Shown here one piece after another: positions 34,613 through 59,926 of a stretch of DNA of 64,000 nt; the first letter of the stretch is position 1; each line of letters opens with the position of its first letter. The notes beneath the pieces were generated by a model. The model was not told where the DNA came from, ran no database searches, and worked only from the letters and a program-made list of their open reading frames with translations. The position numbers and the translations under genes are program-made. Source of the stretch: Candidatus Yanofskybacteria bacterium (lineage in GTDB: Bacteria > Patescibacteriota > Minisyncoccia > 2-02-FULL-40-12 > IGHO2-01-FULL-4-A); contig JACOZV010000001.1 in assembly GCA_016181175.1 (NCBI GenBank), positions 75,778 to 139,777 of the forward strand, read 5' to 3'.

Positions 34613-35151
34613 GGCCATAATCAAATATATGAATAAATTCCACAATAATTTCATAACAAAAAGCGGCTGAAGCCAAGTTCTTAATTTGCGTTTACAAGCA
34701 GCCGCGTAAATCGCGGATTTTTTATCAAAATTGAATATATTAGAGCCATTATTGGCTGTCGTCGGGCATCTCCTTACGGAGGTGCCCGACGGAAGCTAAC
34801 ACTAAACCGATTGAATAGATTGCAATTTAAAAAATAAATAGTTAGCGGGTATCCCGGTTAGAGCTTGCGATTGCCACAAGTGGCAATCCACCTCTAACGG
34901 GATTAAAAAATTGCATTTCTGCATTTAGAAATGAGTTCCAAAATGCAGAATAAGTAGATTGAATTCGATCTATCAATAGAGATCGAGGATTTAATCTTGT
35001 AAGGAATTATTAAGGGCGTATGGAGGATGCCTTGACACCAAAAGGCGACGAAGGACGTGGCGTGACGACGATATGCTTCGGGGAGCCGTCTAGCGGGCTT
35101 TGATCCGGAACATCTCAGTAGCCAGAGGAAAATAAAACAAACCCCGCACCT

Positions 35152-35273
35152 TTTGAGCACAAGATTTTATTTGGCATCCGCATTGTGATGCGTGGCTGAC
35201 GGATATTAATTATTTGTTGTTTGCGCACTACATTTCGGAATCTAATTGACACTAGTGCTTAAAAGGTGCGGGG
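35152..35273 (+). repeat. Hairpin insertion in the 23S 5' domain, flanked by 13-bp inverted repeat CCCCGCACCTTTT / AAAAGGTGCGGGG (family B)
   Basis: Inserted between GAGGAAAATAAAACAAA and AACATTTCCTAAGTAGCGGCGAGCGAA; same IR termini as 57160..57227 and 42283..42458. Confidence 0.65.
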
Positions 35274-35652
35274 AACATTTCCTAAGTAGCGGCGAGCGAA
35301 AGGGAAACAGTCTAAACTCTTGTTTATTAAGTTTACTTAGTGAGTGGGAGTGTTGTAGGAAGGATTTTTTTCTAAACACTGGACATCTGCATATACTCTT
35401 GTGCGGATATCCAGGAAATTAGGATTGAGTTACAAAGTTAGATGTTAGCTGAACGGTCCTGGAAAGGCCGACCAAAGAGGGTGATAGTCCCGTAAACCAA
35501 AACCTCTAATCTCAATCAACCGAGCACATAACTTTTAGGAGTTATGAGCTCGGTTGGAAAATCCTCTCCTGAGTACCCATGGAGCAGACTATCCGTGGCG
35601 AAGCCGGGCCTACTACGGTCCAAGACTAAATACTTTTGGTGATCGATAGTGA

Positions 35653-35686
<34 letters not shown>

Positions 35687-35799
35687 GGTTAGGGGAGTGA
35701 AATAGAACTGAAACCATATGCCTACAAAGAGCCGAAGCCCTTCCCGTCGCAAGACGGTCAGGGTGACGGTGTGCCTATTGAAGAATGATCCAACGAGTT

Positions 35800-36128
35800 T
35801 TTACAAGTGGTTTATCCAGCTTCACTTTTGGTTTATGATGACTTTATGTGGATAGTTTATATTATTCAGAACAATCTAACTGAAAAAATATATATTGGCT
35901 GTACAAATGATCTCAAGAAACGAGTCGAAAAGCATAACAGCCAAACAAATAAAGGTTATACAAGACGACTTATCGGTCAATGGATTTTGATATACGCGGA
36001 AGCTTATAGAAGCAAAGAAGATGCTTTTCGACGGGAGTCAAAACTCAAAGACCACGGTAGTTCTAAACATGAATTGAAGAAGAGAATCAGCAATTCATTG
36101 TTAAAACCAAAAGTGAGGCTGGATTAAG
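35800..36128 (+). mobile_element. Stem-bounded intervening sequence in the 23S helix-25 region carrying a GIY-YIG ORF
   Basis: 19-bp stem CCAGCTTCACTTTTGGTTT (35816-35834) / AAACCAAAAGTGAGGCTGG (36104-36122) enclosing the ORF; inserted between …GAATGATCCAACGAG and GGATAAGCCCGTATAGGG…GGAAACCGAGTG. Confidence 0.65.
35846..36127 (+). CDS. GIY-YIG nuclease-family protein (YhbQ/UPF0213-like) encoded inside the 23S IVS
   Basis: WIVYIIQNNLTEKIYIGCTNDLKKRVEKHN…YTRR…WILIYAEAYRSKEDAFRRESKLK is a GIY-YIG motif set; an alternative GTG start lies at 35807. Confidence 0.7.
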   Translation: MWIVYIIQNNLTEKIYIGCTNDLKKRVEKHNSQTNKGYTRRLIGQWILIYAEAYRSKEDAFRRESKLKDHGSSKHELKKRISNSLLKPKVRLD

Positions 36129-36582
36129 GATAAGCCCGTATAGGGTGCATCCGTAGGGAAACCGAGTGTTAAAAGCGCGACTTAATCGCTTGTAAAAGAC
36201 CCGAAGCCAGGTGAGCTACCCATGGCCAGGATGAAGTTTGTCGAAAGACAAATGGAGGTCCGAACTAGTTGATAGCGCAATATCATTGGATGAGCTGTGG
36301 GTCGGAGTGAAAAGCTTATCGAACCTGGTAATAGCTGGTTCTCCCCGAAATGCCTTTAGGGGCAGCGCCGGTGAGTAGTCGCGGGGGTAGAGCTCTGAAT
36401 GGTTTGCCGTGCCAGCAATGGTAGGCTTACCAAACAAACTACGAATACCGCGGTGTAATCGCCGGTAGTGAGACTGTGAGGGCAAAGCTTCATAGTCGCG
36501 ACGGGATTAGCCGTTTGACCACCGCTTAAGGTCCCTAAATCTATGCTAAGTGTTAAAGGAAGTCATTTTCCTTAGACAGGTA

Positions 36583-36624
<42 letters not shown>

Positions 36625-37305
36625 CAGCTTACTGCTCGAATTCTAATTTCGGTTAGACGAGGAAAGTGGCGCCGAAGATTCAACGGGGCTAAGCATAGTA
36701 CCGAATGCGTGGACCGTCCCGATTTATCGGGATGAGTGGTAGGGGAGCACTTCAAGCCGCTGCGAAGGTGTGTCGTGAGGCATGCTGGAGCGCTTGGAGG
36801 AGAGAATGTTGGAATGAGTAACCACAAGCGAGGTGAGAACCCTCGCCGCCGTAAGCCTAAGGTTTCCTCCGCAATGTCAATCACCGGAGGGTTAGGCGAC
36901 GCTAAGGATAACCGTGCCTACGGGCATGGGAAGCCGATGCTAAGCCGGTTAATATTCCGGCCCTTCCATATGTATTGATGGAGCGACGGAGGATATAAGC
37001 TGGAGCAGATTATTGGATTTCTGTTTTTGGATTCCAGGATTGTCGTTTGGAAAATCCGGCGACTGACTTTAATGTCAAAATACGAATTTGAAGAAATCAC
37101 GGGTAACCGTGGGATTCCAGTGAAGAGCCTTCCAAGAAAAACTTCTAAAATTATGCATATGGGAAACGTACTTAAAACCGACACAGGTGGGCTAGTGTAA
37201 GTGCACTAAGGCGAACGGGTGATTATTGGCTAAGGAACTCGGCAAAAAAGTGGCCGTACCTTCGGTATAAGGCCTACCTGACCGTGCCTCACTGCGTTCG
37301 GCACG

Positions 37306-37410
37306 AATTTTTAAATTTTTAATTTTATAATTTTAATAAATAATTTCTAATGTTTAAAAATTAAAAACATTAAGATTTATTTAAAAATTAAAAATTGGAA
37401 ATTAAAAATT
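37306..37410. repeat. AT-rich palindromic hairpin repeat (family A), full ORF-less copy inserted in a variable 23S helix near the helix-63 region
   Basis: AATTTTTAAATTTTTAATTTTATAATTTTAATAAATAATTTCTAATGTTTAAAAATTAAAAACATTAAGATTTATTTAAAAATTAAAAATTGGAAATTAAAAATT; arms are mutual reverse complements; central mini-hairpin TAATGTTT/AAACATTA; flanked by 23S exon sequence. Confidence 0.75.
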
Positions 37411-37632
37411 CTAACAAGCCGAGCATAGCGAGGCGCGGTTGGGTCGCAGCTAACGAACCCCTGGCGACTGTTTATCTAAAACACAACTCTGTGCTAAGCC
37501 GAAAGGCGCTGTATACAGGGTGACGCTTGTCCAGTGCTGGAACGTTAACGGTGGAGGTGGTATGCAGCAATGTGTATTGCCAACGCCCGAAGCGCCAGTG
37601 AACGACGGCGATAACTATAATCGTCCAAAGGT

Positions 37633-38949
37633 TTTGAGAATTTGTCAGATGGCAAGTTCTCAAAAGGACTTGGCCGATTGTAGTGAATTTATATTGATAA
37701 ACAAAAGTAGCTGCCTATCGCGTGACGAAAGTTTTACGCGATGTCTTAAAATATATTCGATCATATGCTGGAAAGTCTGAGTATCCACAACTACTATGGT
37801 ATGATGTTACCTTTGGTGATAAAATATATCTATGCCAAGTAAAAATGTTAGTGGTGCAGACGATCAGCAGGAAAGTCTGAAAATGATGGGTTGGATAACA
37901 GGTTTTGTTGATGGGGAAGGATGTTTTACTGTCAGTATATTCAAGAATTACAAAGCTCAACGCAAGCTCGGATGGCAAGTATTCCCTGAGTTTGTAGTTT
38001 CCCAAGGAGAGAAGAGCTTGAGCGTTCTCGAACTGATCAAGAACTACTTCAACTGTGGTTATATAATAAAAAATAAAAGGAACGATAACCACCACGAAGA
38101 TATGTTCAAATACTGTGTGAGATCTTTGTCGGATCTAGAAACCAAAATTGTGCCATTCTTTACCCAAAACAAACTCCTAACCGCAAAGCGAAGAGATTTT
38201 ATAATCTTTAAGGAAATCCTAAAAATGATGGGTCGCAAGGACCACCTTAACCTTAAAGGACTTAGAAAAATTGCCTCTCTAGCTTTGCAGATGAATCGTA
38301 AAAAAAGACCCAAGTTTTCAGAAATCCTCAGAGACTAAACGTCGAACCCGCTCAAATTTTTGGACTTAAATAAAAAAAACCTCAACTGAGGTTTCGATGA
38401 ATTTGCTATTAATAATCAATTATAGGAGCTTGTTCGTGCCGCTTATCTATACCTTTAAATCTACTGTCGGTACGGATTTTCCTAATGGTATTTCGTGGTA
38501 ATTCACATTGAATCAGCATAATATCATTGTTTCTGAGTTTAACATTAAATTCTACTATGCCATATTCTATAAAATATATAATAAGAGATGCTACCCAGCG
38601 TACATGAACACGAAGAGTTAATTTTTCCATGAATTTTCCACCTTTCTTTTGTGATTTAAAATGAACTTTGAAATGCAACACCAATAAACTAAATGTTTAC
38701 TGGTTTGCCCTACTCGCCCTGATTTGTAAAAGGATGAGGAAAATAAGGATAACCCTTTACTTTACTCGTCTTTTAGCTGATTTTTATTGTAAAATAAGGA
38801 CAAATCAGATGTTGCACTTCGGGGGTAAATGCGAGCGAAGAAACCCAGTGGTAAGTATAAATCAATTAAAATTTAGTGTCAATAGTCCAAAAATTTGAGC
38901 GGGAAGATATAGTCCGAACTGCATGGCGACATGCAGAGTAACATACTTA
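37633..38949 (+). mobile_element. Intron in 23S at the E. coli ~1917 site (CCAAAGGT | AGCGAAATTCC) carrying a LAGLIDADG homing-endonuclease gene
   Basis: Exon junction reconstitutes AAGGTAGCGAAATTCC; 1317-nt insert; internal 19-bp long-range pairing CCCGCTCAAATTTTTGGAC / GTCCAAAAATTTGAGCGGG; 3' motif GAACTGCATGGCGACATGCAGAG shared with the insert at 39499. Confidence 0.7.
37832..38338 (+). CDS. LAGLIDADG homing endonuclease (single-motif, I-CreI-like), intron-encoded
   Basis: 168 aa; MMGWITGFVDGEGCF LAGLIDADG motif. Confidence 0.8.
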   Translation: MPSKNVSGADDQQESLKMMGWITGFVDGEGCFTVSIFKNYKAQRKLGWQVFPEFVVSQGEKSLSVLELIKNYFNCGYIIKNKRNDNHHEDMFKYCVRSLSDLETKIVPFFTQNKLLTAKRRDFIIFKEILKMMGRKDHLNLKGLRKIASLALQMNRKKRPKFSEILRD

Positions 38950-39441: not shown

Positions 39442-39498
39442 CTTCCTAGGGTTACATCAAGACAGTGCCTGGTGGGTAGTTTAACTGGGGCTGTTGCC

Positions 39499-39995
39499 TT
39501 AACGCGGTATTCGTTACACCGCATGGGGCCTACTGAAAGTAATTTCAGTATGCAAATTCGACTATATGCTGGAACCCCCGCGCATATCTGAATACTCTAC
39601 TTAGTAGCTGAGCTACTAAGTAAGTGAAAATTTTGGATCGATGCGGACAATCAGCAGGGAAGTTCTTCAATTAAATTCAGGACCCCTCAACGACTGTACG
39701 TCGAGTGCCGCGAAGCGGCAATGATACAGTCTGAACTGCATGGCGACATGCAGAGCTGGGCAGAAATGACCCGGCCGCCTATAAAATTTGGTTTTTTAAG
39801 GCCATGTTTTATGGGAAGGGTTTAGCGAATAATGCCTTATAGCACCGTTGAAGCTGTGCGATTGCACGGTTTGCGAGCAGTATAATTTTTCACTGCGAGT
39901 AAAATCCACAGATTCAACGGAGCGTAGCAACCTCGCTGGGGTTGCAAGCGGTGATAGAAGGTATTATTCGCTAAACCTGCAAAGTAACACAATTG
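39499..39995 (+). other. ORF-less structured insertion (intron or IVS) in 23S between GGGGCTGTTGCC and CCTAAAGAGTAACGGAGG
   Basis: About 497 nt with no ORF of 60 aa or more; contains GTCTGAACTGCATGGCGACATGCAGAG, near-identical to the 3' motif of the 37633..38949 intron, and a 20-bp internal stem GGTTTAGCGAATAATGCCTT / AAGGTATTATTCGCTAAACC. Confidence 0.5.
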
Positions 39996-42282: not shown

Positions 42283-42458
42283 CCCCGCACCAAAATTAAA
42301 AATTAAAGCCAGCAAGTTGGTGACTATACTGTGAGTGCTCCACCTGTTCCCATTCCGAACACAGAAGTGAAATCTCGCAAGGCCCATGATAGTACAGTGC
42401 TTAGCATTGTGCGAAAGTAGGTAGTCGCCAGCTTGCTGGTTTTAATTTTGGTGCGGGG
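42283..42458. repeat. Family-B inverted repeat (CCCCGCACCAAAATTAAAA … TTTTAATTTTGGTGCGGGG) enclosing the 5S gene as an extended processing-stem/hairpin
   Basis: Left arm 42283-42307, right arm 42440-42458, 19 bp perfectly complementary. Confidence 0.6.
42308..42439 (+). rRNA. rrf: 5S rRNA with a 16-bp extended terminal helix
   Basis: GGTGACTATACTGTGAGTGCTCCACCTGTTCCCATTCCGAACACAGAAGTGAAATCTCGCAAGGCCCATGATAGTACAGTGCTTAGCATTGTGCGAAAGTAGGTAGTCGCCAGC; ends GCCAGCAAGTTGG / CCAGCTTGCTGG pair. Confidence 0.8.
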
Positions 42459-57369: not shown

Positions 57370-58572
57370 ATGGCAGGAAAATTTGAGAGATCAAAGCCGC
57401 ACTTGAATGTCGGCACAATTGGTCACGTTGACCATGGTAAAACCACCTTGACGGCGGCTATTTTACACACGCTAGATCTTTTTAAAGATGAGGGCTATGG
57501 TGCTCGCGTTGAAAAAGTTGATCAGATTGATAATGCCCCTGAAGAAAAAGCTCGCGGTATTACTATCGCATTGCATCATTCAGAGTATGAAACACCGAAA
57601 CGTCACTATGCTCACGTTGATGCTCCTGGTCACCAGGATTATATCAAGAACATGATTACGGGCGCTGCCCAAATGGACGGTGCGGTTTTAGTTGTGGCTG
57701 CAACAGACGGTCCGATGCCGCAAACCCGTGAACACATTTTGCTTGCTAGACAAGTTGGCGTGCCTTACGTAATGGTCTTTTTAAATAAGGTAGATCAGGT
57801 TGACGATCCAGAAATGCTTGATCTGGTTGAAGCTGAAATACGTGAGCTTCTGAACAAATATCAATTTCCCGGAGATAAAACGCCCATAGTCAGGGGTTCG
57901 GCTCTGAAGGCTCTTGATGCCAAGAGCAAAGACGATCCGTCTCTCAAATCAATCAAGGAACTTATTGATACGCTTGATTCATATATTCCTGATCCAGTTA
58001 GAGAAATAGAAAAACCGTTCCTGATGCCTGTGGAAGACATCTTTTCTATAGAAGGTCGTGGCACTGTTGTTACTGGTCGTATTGAGCGTGGAAAAGTTAA
58101 GGTTAACGAAGAAATTGAAGTGGTTGGTATTACTCCTACTCAGAAAACCGTAGTAACTGGTATAGAAATGTTCAACAAACAGTTAGATGAAGGAATGGCA
58201 GGGGATAATGCTGGCATACTGTTAAGGGGTCTTAAAAAAGAAGATGTGTCCCGTGGCCAGGTACTCTCTAAACCAGGTTCAATAACCCCGCATACAGAAT
58301 TTGATGCGGAGGTTTATGTTTTGTCTAAAGAAGAAGGTGGCAGGCATACGCCGTTTTTCAAGGGTTACAAACCGCAATTTTACTTTAGAACAACCGATGT
58401 TACAGGGGATGTTACTTTGCCTGAGGGAACAGAAATGGTTATGCCTGGAGATACAGTTAACTTGAAAATTAAACTTATTGCCCCGATTGCTATGGAAGAA
58501 AAGCAACGCTTTGCTATTAGAGAAGGGGGAAAGACAGTAGGTGCAGGCGTTGTCACAAGAGTTATAGTATAA
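57370..58572 (+). CDS. tuf: Elongation factor Tu
   Basis: [23 protein letters not shown]-motifs; 400 aa. Confidence 0.97.
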
Positions 58573-58574
58573 AA

Positions 58575-58618
58575 ATAACCACGCCCTTGAGCTTATGGCT
58601 CAAGGGCGTGGTTATTTG
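58575..58618 (+). terminator. Hairpin terminator/attenuator between tuf and rpsJ
   Basis: ATAACCACGCCCTTGAGC-TTATG-GCTCAAGGGCGTGGTTAT followed by TTG. Confidence 0.65.
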
Positions 58619-58640: not shown

Positions 58641-58979
58641 ATGCCAAGCAAAAAAGACAAAACACCAGAAGTAGCCCAACAACGAATTAGAATCAAATTG
58701 AGGGCTTATGATAATAAGATTATTGATAAGTCTGCCAAGCAGATCGTTGAAACGATTGAAAGAAACGGTGGCAAGGTTATTGGCCCAGTGCCATTACCGA
58801 CAGAGATCCGCAAGTATACAGTCAATCGCTCCGCTTTTATAGATAAAAATTCCCGTGAACAATTTGAAATGCGTGTTCACAAAAGATTAATAGATATTTT
58901 CGGTCCCAATTCCAAAATTATAGATTCCCTAATGAATCTTAACCTACCAGCCGGTGTAGATATTGAATTGAAAATGTAA
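58641..58979 (+). CDS. rpsJ: 30S ribosomal protein S10
   Basis: …[27 protein letters not shown]…[10 protein letters not shown]…. Confidence 0.95.
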
Positions 58980-59147
58980 TTTTCAATTCAATATCTACAC
59001 CGCAACGAAGGGGTCGGGAAACAATGATGGTTTCCCGATGAGGAAGTTGGAAACCGCTTGGTTTCCAAGAGTGGGAGCGGTGCCCTAGCGAGCGAAGCGA
59101 GCGGTGGAGGGGCCCACGATGGAATAGATATTGAACTTAAGATGTAG
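58953..59147 (+). other. Perfect 22-bp hairpin spanning the rpsJ stop codon, plus an inserted structured segment of about 140 nt ending in a duplicate of the last 27 nt of rpsJ
   Basis: GGTGTAGATATTGAATTGAAAA-TGTAA-TTTTCAATTCAATATCTACACC (58953-59001); duplicate GGAATAGATATTGAACTTAAGATGTAG (59121-59147) encodes GIDIELKM*, matching the rpsJ C-terminus GVDIELKM*. Confidence 0.55.
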
Positions 59148-59326
59148 TTAAGACATAATCGGATTCAATGGTGCCAGATGTCGTTATCGTTTATCGATGC
59201 CGACATTTGTTACTTTCTGTGAAGTAACAATATAACTTAATGGTTTTAATTTTTAATAAAACCTAATTCGCACAAACTGATTTAGCTTTTGGTTATTTTG
59301 CCCAGCTAGATCTGGGTTTTTGTTTT

Positions 59327-59926
59327 ATGTCATTTATCCTTGGTAAAAAAATTGGAATGACCCAAATTTTTCAGGAAGATGGAACCGTAACTCCCGTAAC
59401 TTTGGTTGAAGCCGGTCCAGTTACTGTTACGCAGGTAAGGGTTAAAGACAAAGATGGCTACGAAGCGGTGCAGGTCGGTTACGGTAATGACAAAAAACTT
59501 AATAAACCCAAGGGCGGACACTTAAAAGATCTCAAACCGCTCAAAGTATTAAGGGAAACAAAAGTACTGAATGATAAAAAAAGAGGTGACGAAATAGATG
59601 TTTCCGCATTTGGTATTGGTGACAAAGTAAAGGTAAGCGGTTTCTCTAAGGCCAGAGGATTTCAGGGTGTGGTCAAGAGACACGGTTTCCATGGAATGCC
59701 TGCCAGTCATGGCCATCATCACGTTTTACGCCATGGCGGTTCCATCGGCCAACGTTTTCCCCAGCATACTCTCAAGGGTATGCGCATGGCCGGACGCATG
59801 GGCGGCAAGAGAATAACAACGAGAGGATTAAAAATTTTAAATATTGATAAAGAAAATAATCTTTTGGCAATAAAGGGAGCAATTCCCGGCCGCCGAGGAA
59901 CATTATTAGAAATAACAAAAATATGA
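59327..59926 (+). CDS. rplC: 50S ribosomal protein L3
   Basis: 199 aa; canonical L3 blocks. Confidence 0.95.
   Translation: MSFILGKKIGMTQIFQEDGTVTPVTLVEAGPVTVTQVRVKDKDGYEAVQVGYGNDKKLNKPKGGHLKDLKPLKVLRETKVLNDKKRGDEIDVSAFGIGDKVKVSGFSKARGFQGVVKRHGFHGMPASHGHHHVLRHGGSIGQRFPQHTLKGMRMAGRMGGKRITTRGLKILNIDKENNLLAIKGAIPGRRGTLLEITKI

Follow-up and report, generated by a model that had tools for sequence, protein, structure and literature searches.

Introduction

Bacteria of the candidate phyla radiation (CPR), or Patescibacteria, have tiny genomes in which few mobile elements have been recognised. Here we report on a 64,000-nt stretch of DNA, hereafter the window, from Candidatus Yanofskybacteria, a member of this group (assembly GCA_016181175.1, contig JACOZV010000001.1, positions 75,778-139,777 of the forward strand). 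In this stretch the ribosomal protein gene rpsJ (S10) is followed by a structured, GC-rich segment and then by a second copy of the gene's own 3' end. We propose that the segment at 58979-59147 is a single copy of a mobile element that is dispersed among CPR/Patescibacteria and is neither coding nor autonomous, a reading to which we give a probability of about 0.75. In this reading the element belongs to a widespread family, with a conserved and folded RNA-like core, that inserts at the ends of tRNA and ribosomal protein genes and leaves those genes intact.

Several kinds of small repeats resemble this family. MITEs (miniature inverted-repeat transposable elements), REP/BIME, Correia and RUP/BOX sequences and the Rickettsia palindromic elements are, like it, small (~130-250 nt), non-coding, multi-copy and rich in hairpins; MITEs and small repeats also lie beside gene ends and are polymorphic for presence or absence in close relatives. 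Unlike MITEs, however, the family lacks terminal inverted repeats specific to it (the arms are copies of each target), and its target duplication is long and variable (15-80 nt) instead of short and fixed. Nor have we seen a related autonomous insertion sequence, and the core of the family shows covariation of the RNA type, which includes a tertiary pair.

Further systems for comparison are the islands whose integration sites are tRNA genes, the icd-integrated phage 21 and e14, and cis-mobilizable elements (CIMEs). As do the tRNA/tmRNA islands, phage 21 and e14, the family enters tRNA genes in their 3' part, starting at the T-loop, or the last codons of a protein gene, and the result in both cases is a duplicated gene end, a functional gene and a displaced pseudo-end. 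In contrast to these integrative elements, the family has no integrase, measures ~150 nt and carries an extra, inverted copy of the target, and one element lineage uses many unrelated targets.

An insertion at the 3' end of rpsJ

The rpsJ gene of the window (58641-58979, + strand, from the list of open reading frames, ORFs) is intact. It encodes 112 amino acids (aa) ending in GVDIELKM*, and its product is 100% identical to a protein named S10 in a Candidatus Yanofskybacteria metagenome-assembled genome (MAG) and matches Pfam PF00338. A hairpin across the stop codon, described by the first-pass annotation as 22 bp long with the loop TGTAA, is real and perfect, although its dimensions differ from that description: the arms, 58952-58975 and 58979-59002, form 24 bp with 100% complementarity around a 3-nt loop, GTA (58976-58978), that overlaps the stop codon TAA at 58977-58979. 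The 5' arm ends before the G of the final ATG, and the 3' arm starts at the last base of the stop codon. Folding of 58945-59160 gave -81.1 kcal/mol compared to -52.0 +/- 3.7 kcal/mol for shuffled sequences (z = -7.9), with none of 200 shuffles as good.

A GC-rich segment of ~118 nt separates this hairpin from a degenerate copy of the rpsJ end, and the GC content of the insert is 54-58%, compared to 32-43% in the neighbourhood. As had been noted from the sequence at first pass, the second copy of the last 27 nt encodes GIDIELKM* where the gene itself encodes GVDIELKM*. The direct repeat (58957-58981 versus 59125-59149) is 84% identical, with a start-to-start spacing of 168 nt. The parts of the window copy are as follows.

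58952-58975, + strand: A (X), the last eight codons of rpsJ, which form the 5' arm of the hairpin and the first copy of the direct repeat (inverted repeat I1, direct repeat D1)
58976-58978, + strand: loop GTA, overlapping the stop codon (sequence)
58979-59002, + strand: X-bar (A'), an inverted copy of the rpsJ end, which is the 3' arm of the hairpin and the 5' arm of the element (100% complementary; missing at the empty site of locus L083)
59003-59014, + strand: 5' junction CAACGAAGGGGT (alignment of family cores)
59015-59037, + strand: hairpin Pa, CGGGAAAC / GTTTCCCG (covariation)
59038-59046, + strand: purine-rich junction ATGAGGAAG, in which A59041 forms a covarying long-range pair with T59059
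59047-59068, + strand: hairpin Pb, TTGGAAACC GCTT GGTTTCCAA (covariation)
59069-59120, + strand: junction GAG, variable hairpin Pc and 3' junction GAT (fold)
59121-59147, + strand: A'', a direct but degenerate repeat of the final 27 nt of rpsJ (GIDIELKM, TAG), read as a displaced pseudo-end
59148-59326, + strand: native rpsJ-rplC spacer, outside the insertion (aligned with the empty-site relative L083 and others)

The hairpins at 59015-59037 and 59047-59068 are the two that the first-pass annotation had named within the intervening segment, and they correspond to the conserved helices Pa and Pb of the family. The covariance model of the family core, described below, matched the window at 59003-59071 (65.9 bits, E = 9e-19). 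No second copy within the window was found by a search allowing mismatches, by blastn or by the covariance model run with its filters off. In the 5' junction, AAGGGGTC is invariant across the family, partly since the search pattern demanded it. The outer stem of Pc pairs GTGGG (59071-59075) with CCCAC (59113-59117) and is altered on both sides in L003, another of the loci compared (GCGGG/CCCGC); a GCGAAGC motif lies in the middle of the hairpin. This motif is very often found at the tip of Pc, at 59094-59100 in the window copy, and corresponds to a mini-hairpin of unusual stability.

Assemblies of two independent read sets (L001 and L002) contain the insert in identical form, and it is therefore not an assembly artefact. 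Together with the z-score of the fold and with homologous elements in unrelated MAGs and over 100 metagenome contigs, this identity leaves chance similarity or artefact with almost no probability. An intrinsic terminator at the stop-codon hairpin was also considered. The hairpin has no T-run, being followed by GCAACGAAGG, and therefore is not an intrinsic terminator; the terminator scan does not flag it. Because the arm of the element is an inverted copy of its target, the stop-codon hairpin is the junction of rpsJ with the target-derived inverted arm of the element.

Presence and absence among S10 loci

We compared 84 S10 loci, 80 of them from species-representative genomes and four obtained by exact-protein look-up. 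In the closest relative found, L083, whose L3 is 92% identical at the aa level (third codon positions ~60% identical), rpsJ and its stop codon lead directly into the spacer that in the window starts after 59147. Given this empty site, the extra segment in the window is an insertion. The search of related genomes for an rpsJ-rplC spacer that lacks the insert, proposed at first pass, thus supports the suggestion made there of an insertion bounded by a duplicated rpsJ 3' end.

Homologous elements occupy the same place in L003 (L3 77% identical at the aa level, third positions 52% identical) and, in a shorter form, in L020 (Portnoybacteria, S10 68%). From the core through A'', the window and L003 are 87% identical despite third codon positions of rpsJ and rplC that are 52% identical, that is, saturated; therefore the element is either strongly constrained or recently transferred. 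The A'' copies of these two loci are 85% identical. The element is missing from L083-L086 and from L004-L015.

This distribution bears on the idea that the insert is a regulatory RNA of the S10 operon. It might be a ribosome-sensing switch, in which translation of the rpsJ end would free X-bar for pairing with A'' and thereby alter rplC, or an autoregulatory leader for a ribosomal protein. Such a regulator could make use of the three mutually exclusive pairing partners (A with X-bar is perfect, and X-bar is 84% complementary to A''), of the stop codon within the hairpin loop, and of the position of the element upstream of both the conserved leader and the terminator-like hairpin that precede rplC. 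However, the closest relative lacks the element, as do 12 of the 14 nearest S10 loci that were read, and the core covariance model matches only two of the 84 S10 loci, L003 and L020. The same core is also found at tRNA genes and at the genes for S9, S7 and fusA; X-bar tracks A and not A''; and the arms show no enrichment of wobble pairs. Thus, we consider an S10-operon regulator very unlikely. The rpsJ stop-codon hairpin is explained by the element, and there is no sign here of an S10-operon signal.

The rpsJ-rplC spacer had been called atypical in length at first pass, a description that does not hold: its 347 nt fall within the range of 120-350 nt that is common among 74 related loci, in which the S10-L3 spacer runs from ~1 to 1232 nt. 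In some of the relatives (L085, 2430-3014; L010; L011) this spacer contains unrelated insertions of 0.8-0.9 kb with small ORFs; the 194-aa ORF of the L085 insertion gave no Pfam match. The S10-L3 spacer appears to be a general insertion hot spot. Among the listed S10 homologues there was none with a C-terminal extension; their C-termini read G[VL]D[IV]E[LIVM]K[MI] or differ little from it, and the longer homologues are N-terminal mis-calls.

A family of elements with a covarying core

From blocks common to the window, L003 and L020, we built the search pattern AAGGGGTCN{28,48}AAACCGCNNGGTTT, which matched at least 120 metagenome stretches and gave no match in the viral contigs searched. We aligned 101 distinct cores and built covariance model R1 from the alignment. 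The model yielded 113 hits in 0.69 Mb of metagenome loci, and at least 13 contigs carry two or more. The conserved core (~70 nt) consists of the junction AAGGGGUC, helix Pa, a purine-rich junction, helix Pb and a junction of the AAGGAG type. Downstream of the core comes the hairpin Pc, whose length and sequence differ across the family, and then a triplet, GAC or GAT/GAU, before the direct copy. In some copies (L087, L165, L184, L201) the module ...GGAG-hairpin-GAC is present twice.

Both helices of the core covary. In Pa this is seen at column pairs 17-31 (AU 79, GC 14) and 20-28 (AU 89, CG 10), and in Pb at column pairs 50-69 (UA 74, CG 24) and 52-67 (AU 55, GC 44), with 99.9% of the Pb cells in the alignment paired. 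A long-range Watson-Crick pair, 41-61, joins a junction base to the fourth loop base of Pb (n = 101: UA 44, CG 42, AU 7, UG 1, unpaired 7). In all, ten column pairs changed on both sides. Each of the five covariation measures exceeded the values of 500 of 500 shuffles, and the measures collapsed when the partners were slid by 1-3 columns. The wobble pairs read G-U on the + strand. The core would act as a folded single strand of + sense, most likely RNA. The first-pass annotation had offered a structured RNA between S10 and L3 as the alternative to a duplicating insertion; the strong covariation in the inserted core favours that RNA, and the two alternatives are supported as being true together.

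Three other structural or coding interpretations of the insert were set aside. A closing GUC:GAC helix was unsupported, and C13 was assigned to Pa. A G-quadruplex in the 5' junction was likewise unsupported, since the subfamily of the window lacks two of the four G-runs. As to a coding function, the substitutions between the window and L003, counted by eye, show no significant enrichment at third positions.

The Rfam scan that the first-pass annotation had proposed found no structured-RNA family for the element (Rfam 15, 4227 models, among them every known small ribozyme, the ribosomal protein leaders and the T-box). In the window, at E <= 10, the only matches were spurious hairpins of the microRNA type, none at the gathering score; in nine family loci, at E <= 0.1, nothing matched the element; and for the element of L089, at E <= 10, the best match was mascRNA with 19.7 bits versus a gathering score of 42.5. 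The same scans detected tRNAs, RNase P RNA and true group I introns nearby. Literature searches, one of them with the literal core sequence, found no description of the family, which may be described beyond the literature searched. The nearest paper concerns group I introns in the anticodon loops of Patescibacteria tRNAs, a different element (PMC13011429). The family is a widespread small mobile element with an unusual layout, unmatched in Rfam 15 and in the literature searched.

Targets and layout of the insertions

The common layout is gene body, [X Y], X-bar, core, [X Y'], in which X Y is the gene end (15-80 nt) and X-bar is an inverted copy of the start of X Y (10-25 nt). The second X Y is a displaced duplicate, and thus the target gene stays intact. 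In the window, the target X Y is the last eight codons of rpsJ together with the stop codon. We tested this layout on 84 copies located away from contig ends, and more than half of them share it. The 5' arm matched the upstream sequence in inverted orientation, at 12 or more of 14 nt, in 46 of these copies compared to 0 in the control, and direct repeats on the two sides of the element, alike at 14 or more of 16 nt, were found in 56 compared to 2 in the control.

The main targets are same-strand tRNA genes that end 5-80 nt before the core, often with a terminator hairpin between; in these tRNA-type copies A'' begins in the T-loop and extends to the tRNA 3' end. Protein-gene targets are S10 (window, L003, L020, L197), S9, S7, a UvrC-like gene and a small membrane protein. 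At fusA the target is the first ~20 codons, that is, the 5' end of the gene, and the element lies in the opposite orientation. One contig, L164, carries two 100% identical cores that have a private 8-nt insertion in common and are located at tRNA-Tyr and tRNA-Glu, respectively, which shows transposition within a genome. The constant unit in L164 runs from TTCGAAC-GGGA to GTGAGATTCC, and the sequence beyond it is target-specific. In L182 the core is identical to that of the window at 67 of 69 positions, yet the 3' junction and A'' are of the tRNA type (GTGAGAT + TCTCGGCGCTCCGACA), the tRNA itself being cut off by the contig edge. Nested and truncated copies are present in L090 and L173.

We clustered the ORFs within +/-6 kb of ~110 copies in search of a partner gene. 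No ORF family was present in more than eight loci, and none was at a constant position; the clusters near the elements included no ORF for a reverse transcriptase. A large serine recombinase was found within a few kb in four loci, at varying positions.

These results bear on whether the copies are degenerate integrase-mediated elements, either attL/attR pairs whose interior has been lost or CIME-like units mobilised in trans. In keeping with this proposal, the gene-end duplication leaves the gene intact, a direct repeat flanks the element, repeats from the T-loop to the 3' end of a tRNA are the classic footprint of an integrase, and the serine recombinase is close by in those four loci. However, no recombinase is consistently linked within 6 kb of the metagenome copies, dozens of unrelated targets would require many site specificities, and the repeats vary in length from 15 to 80 nt. 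Furthermore, an inverted copy of the target is not a product of integrase chemistry, and the interior, being strongly conserved, strand-specific and covarying, is not decaying DNA. We therefore regard an integrase remnant as quite unlikely.

Another possible reading is that the element is removed from RNA. In an intron-like or ribozyme element, X-bar would be an internal guide, the segment from X through the core would be removed, and A'' would be the real end of the gene. Like group I introns, the family has a folded RNA core that adjoins a segment complementary to the upstream flank, a patchy distribution such as homing elements show, and an intron-rich host clade (PMC13011429; one group I intron lies in the window at 39472-39753). 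The core next to the guide-like arm is conserved and covarying and has a tertiary pair, A'' is preceded by a conserved GAC(G), and the differences between A and A'' are mostly synonymous. Unlike these introns, however, the element is undetected by the group I model and all other Rfam ribozyme models, although RF00028 finds the true intron of the window (67.6 bits) and one in L089, and with a core of ~100 nt it is several-fold smaller than group I introns and falls far short of introns of either group, I or II, in size. The element is located outside an intact gene whose end is duplicated. Neither rpsJ nor the tRNAs need splicing to be complete, a terminator separates gene from arm in many tRNA copies, and the fusA copies are antisense to the operon. 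Many A'' segments at tRNA genes begin with GTGAGAT, tRNA-type copies would not restore the T-loop, and the chimeric tRNA (5' part plus A'') is often not recognised. Nonsense changes are present in some A'' copies (L143, L167). An intron-like element thus appears unlikely.

The junctions at tRNA genes have further features. In more than 15 tRNA contexts (e.g., L088, L090, L114, L130, L164, L180), A'' begins with GTGAGAT and not with the T-loop GTTCGAAT. Opposite the arm ...ATCGAAC, GTGAGAT would give tandem G.A mismatches, and the motif belongs to the 3' end of the element. Many different contigs (L109, L127, L140, L161, L164, L095) share a tRNA cluster of the order Thr-Tyr-[core]-Thr-Trp, with the core placed after tRNA-Tyr and before tRNA-Thr(GGU); in most such contigs it directly adjoins the 5' end of tRNA-Thr, so that the 3' end of the core coincides with the site of RNase P cleavage. 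Genes for RNase P RNA are found ~0.5-2.3 kb from family copies in L139 (4074-4468, 4948-5029) and L179 (1-406), which may be coincidence.

Perfection of the arms and status of A''

In 48 copies with arms of 10-25 nt, 698 of 718 arm positions are Watson-Crick pairs, 5 are G-U and 15 are mismatched. The S10 copies with a 3-nt loop (window, L003, L197) differ from one another at synonymous codon positions and each pairs perfectly at 24 of 24 positions; every synonymous change in the gene arm of L003 and L197 is compensated in the opposite arm. Since perfect arms occur with different codons and there is none of the wobble enrichment that selection on RNA would give, we read arm perfection as a property of the DNA level. 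The arm would be a copy of the target made at insertion; where it lies 3 nt from the gene end, quasi-palindrome correction of the DNA would afterwards have preserved the match while rpsJ drifted synonymously. In older copies X-bar matches A, not A''; an automatic search for a P1 helix between X-bar and A'' gave noisy results.

The best reading of A'' is that of a displaced pseudo-end. Most differences that separate A from A'' are synonymous (about 31 versus 8-9), a bias that could suggest translation of A'' but is better read as drift of the functional copy A under coding constraint or the carry-over of an orthologous gene end. Translation of A'' is argued against by the out-of-frame spacing in the family, by the nonsense changes in L143 and L167, and by the GTGAGAT starts of the tRNA types. 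In the S10 copies, the spacing from A to A'' is a multiple of 3, with 168 nt in the window and 132 nt in L020 (1028-1159). An in-frame A'' was not seen at other targets, and thus the in-frame spacing at S10 is probably a coincidence.

For the same reasons, we find it highly improbable that the ribosome performs a programmed bypass or read-through here, as at T4 gene 60 or mitochondrial byp, by taking off at the stop hairpin and landing on the codons of A''. The stop codon does lie in the loop of a strong hairpin, and identical codons recur in frame 168 nt downstream (132 nt, also in frame, in L020). However, the S10 protein is complete at the first stop, two in-frame stops intervene, the spacings across the family (125, 128, 160, 164, 167, 173 and others) are not multiples of 3, and most copies are at tRNA genes. 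We also considered and rejected the variable and template repeats (VR/TR) of a diversity-generating retroelement. Only two of six differences are at adenines of A'', which is not an adenine-specific pattern, and there is no reverse transcriptase ORF near the elements.

How the element might be copied in

The layout of the family suggests, as a working model for the mobile element, that a target is chosen by base-pairing or homology of the arm with the target, with T-loop-like termini serving for tRNA targets. Insertion would then be a templated copy-in, directed by a guide or by homology, with a target duplication of variable length, and it would be performed by host enzymes or by the RNA itself and not by a transposase that makes a fixed target duplication. 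In its boldest form the model states that a protein-less folded RNA of ~100 nt picks gene ends by base-pairing, writes a new guide arm for each target and copies itself in with variable duplication, by its own catalysis or by a recruited host enzyme. We offer this form tentatively, as a possibility that is more doubtful than not.

Certain retroelements and RNA-guided systems share parts of this scheme. The site-specific non-long-terminal-repeat retroelements R2 and L1Tc have ribozymes formed in part from target sequence, and their insertion is target-primed. In them, as in the family, sequence of the upstream target pairs with the element RNA at its 5' end, duplications of the target vary in length, and there are non-autonomous derivatives. 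Unlike R2 and L1Tc, which are eukaryotic, the family has no linked reverse transcriptase, fold like that of hepatitis delta virus (HDV), poly-A or 3' untranslated region module. The IS110 bridge RNA, the omega RNAs of IS200/605 TnpB/IscB and the CRISPR-associated transposons also use a structured RNA with a target-matching segment, and tRNA genes are favoured. Unlike these systems, the family has no associated recombinase or nuclease gene, its guide is an inverted copy of the adjacent flank, its direct repeat is long, and it has no Rfam match in sequence or structure.

Several points weigh against the mobile-element reading. About one third of the copies have no clear arm or repeat, and ~12 cores adjoin the 5' end of a whole tRNA with an arm of only ~5 bp. 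In the window, A is closer than A'' to the gene end of L083, and A'' resembles the A'' of L003, so the pseudo-end could be host-derived or carried in. Collection of the alignment by an exact pattern inflates the apparent invariance of the core, although the covarying columns were free to vary. The copy-in mechanism is a proposal drawn from sequence, and we derived no single pathway that accounts for all copies. Finally, the window copy may be of benefit to its host.

If transcription of rpsJ reads through, the transcript would gain a 24-bp 3' helix and ~170 nt of extra structured RNA before the native rplC leader. More generally, the element is abundant in metagenome contigs, where it lies beside the most conserved genes, i.e., those for tRNAs, S10, S9, S7 and EF-G. 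Through it, genomes gain additional 3' fragments of tRNAs, pseudo-ends of genes and long spacers, all of which can affect annotation, and it is a marker for strain-level polymorphism. It also raises the question of how, lacking a transposase, a non-coding element of ~150 nt gains a target-matched arm and duplicates its target. Should the core be catalytic or act as guide to a host enzyme, this would be a new principle of RNA-guided insertion and of engineering interest. If the protein-less form of the model is true, the family would be a new class of mobile element, with reprogrammable RNA-guided insertion in the smallest bacterial genomes.

Neighbouring features

The gene order on the + strand is tuf, rpsJ, rplC, rplD. 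The genes next to rpsJ are as follows.

57370-58572, + strand: tuf (ORF list)
59327-59926, + strand: rplC, ribosomal protein L3 (ORF list; tblastn of the window L3 in related loci)

The native spacer at 59148-59326 contains a leader conserved in the clade, with a GTTAC...GTAAC hairpin and an invariant ATGGTTTTAA...TTAAAACC hairpin, and it matched no Rfam family. A terminator-like stem with a T-run, found in the terminator scan at 59300-59317, ends ~9 nt before the ATG of rplC. The native spacer looks like an attenuator or a ribosomal protein leader.

Directly after tuf, a perfect 20-bp hairpin with a T-rich tail (58573-58617) was flagged in the terminator scan and is a strong candidate for an intrinsic terminator; rpsJ may thus have its own promoter or depend on read-through. 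Elsewhere in the window, the 23S rRNA model matched end to end within 35000-37750, followed by the group I intron and then by 5S rRNA at 42316-42433. The ~4.5 kb between the 23S match and the 5S gene suggests that there are large insertions or introns in or after the 23S gene.

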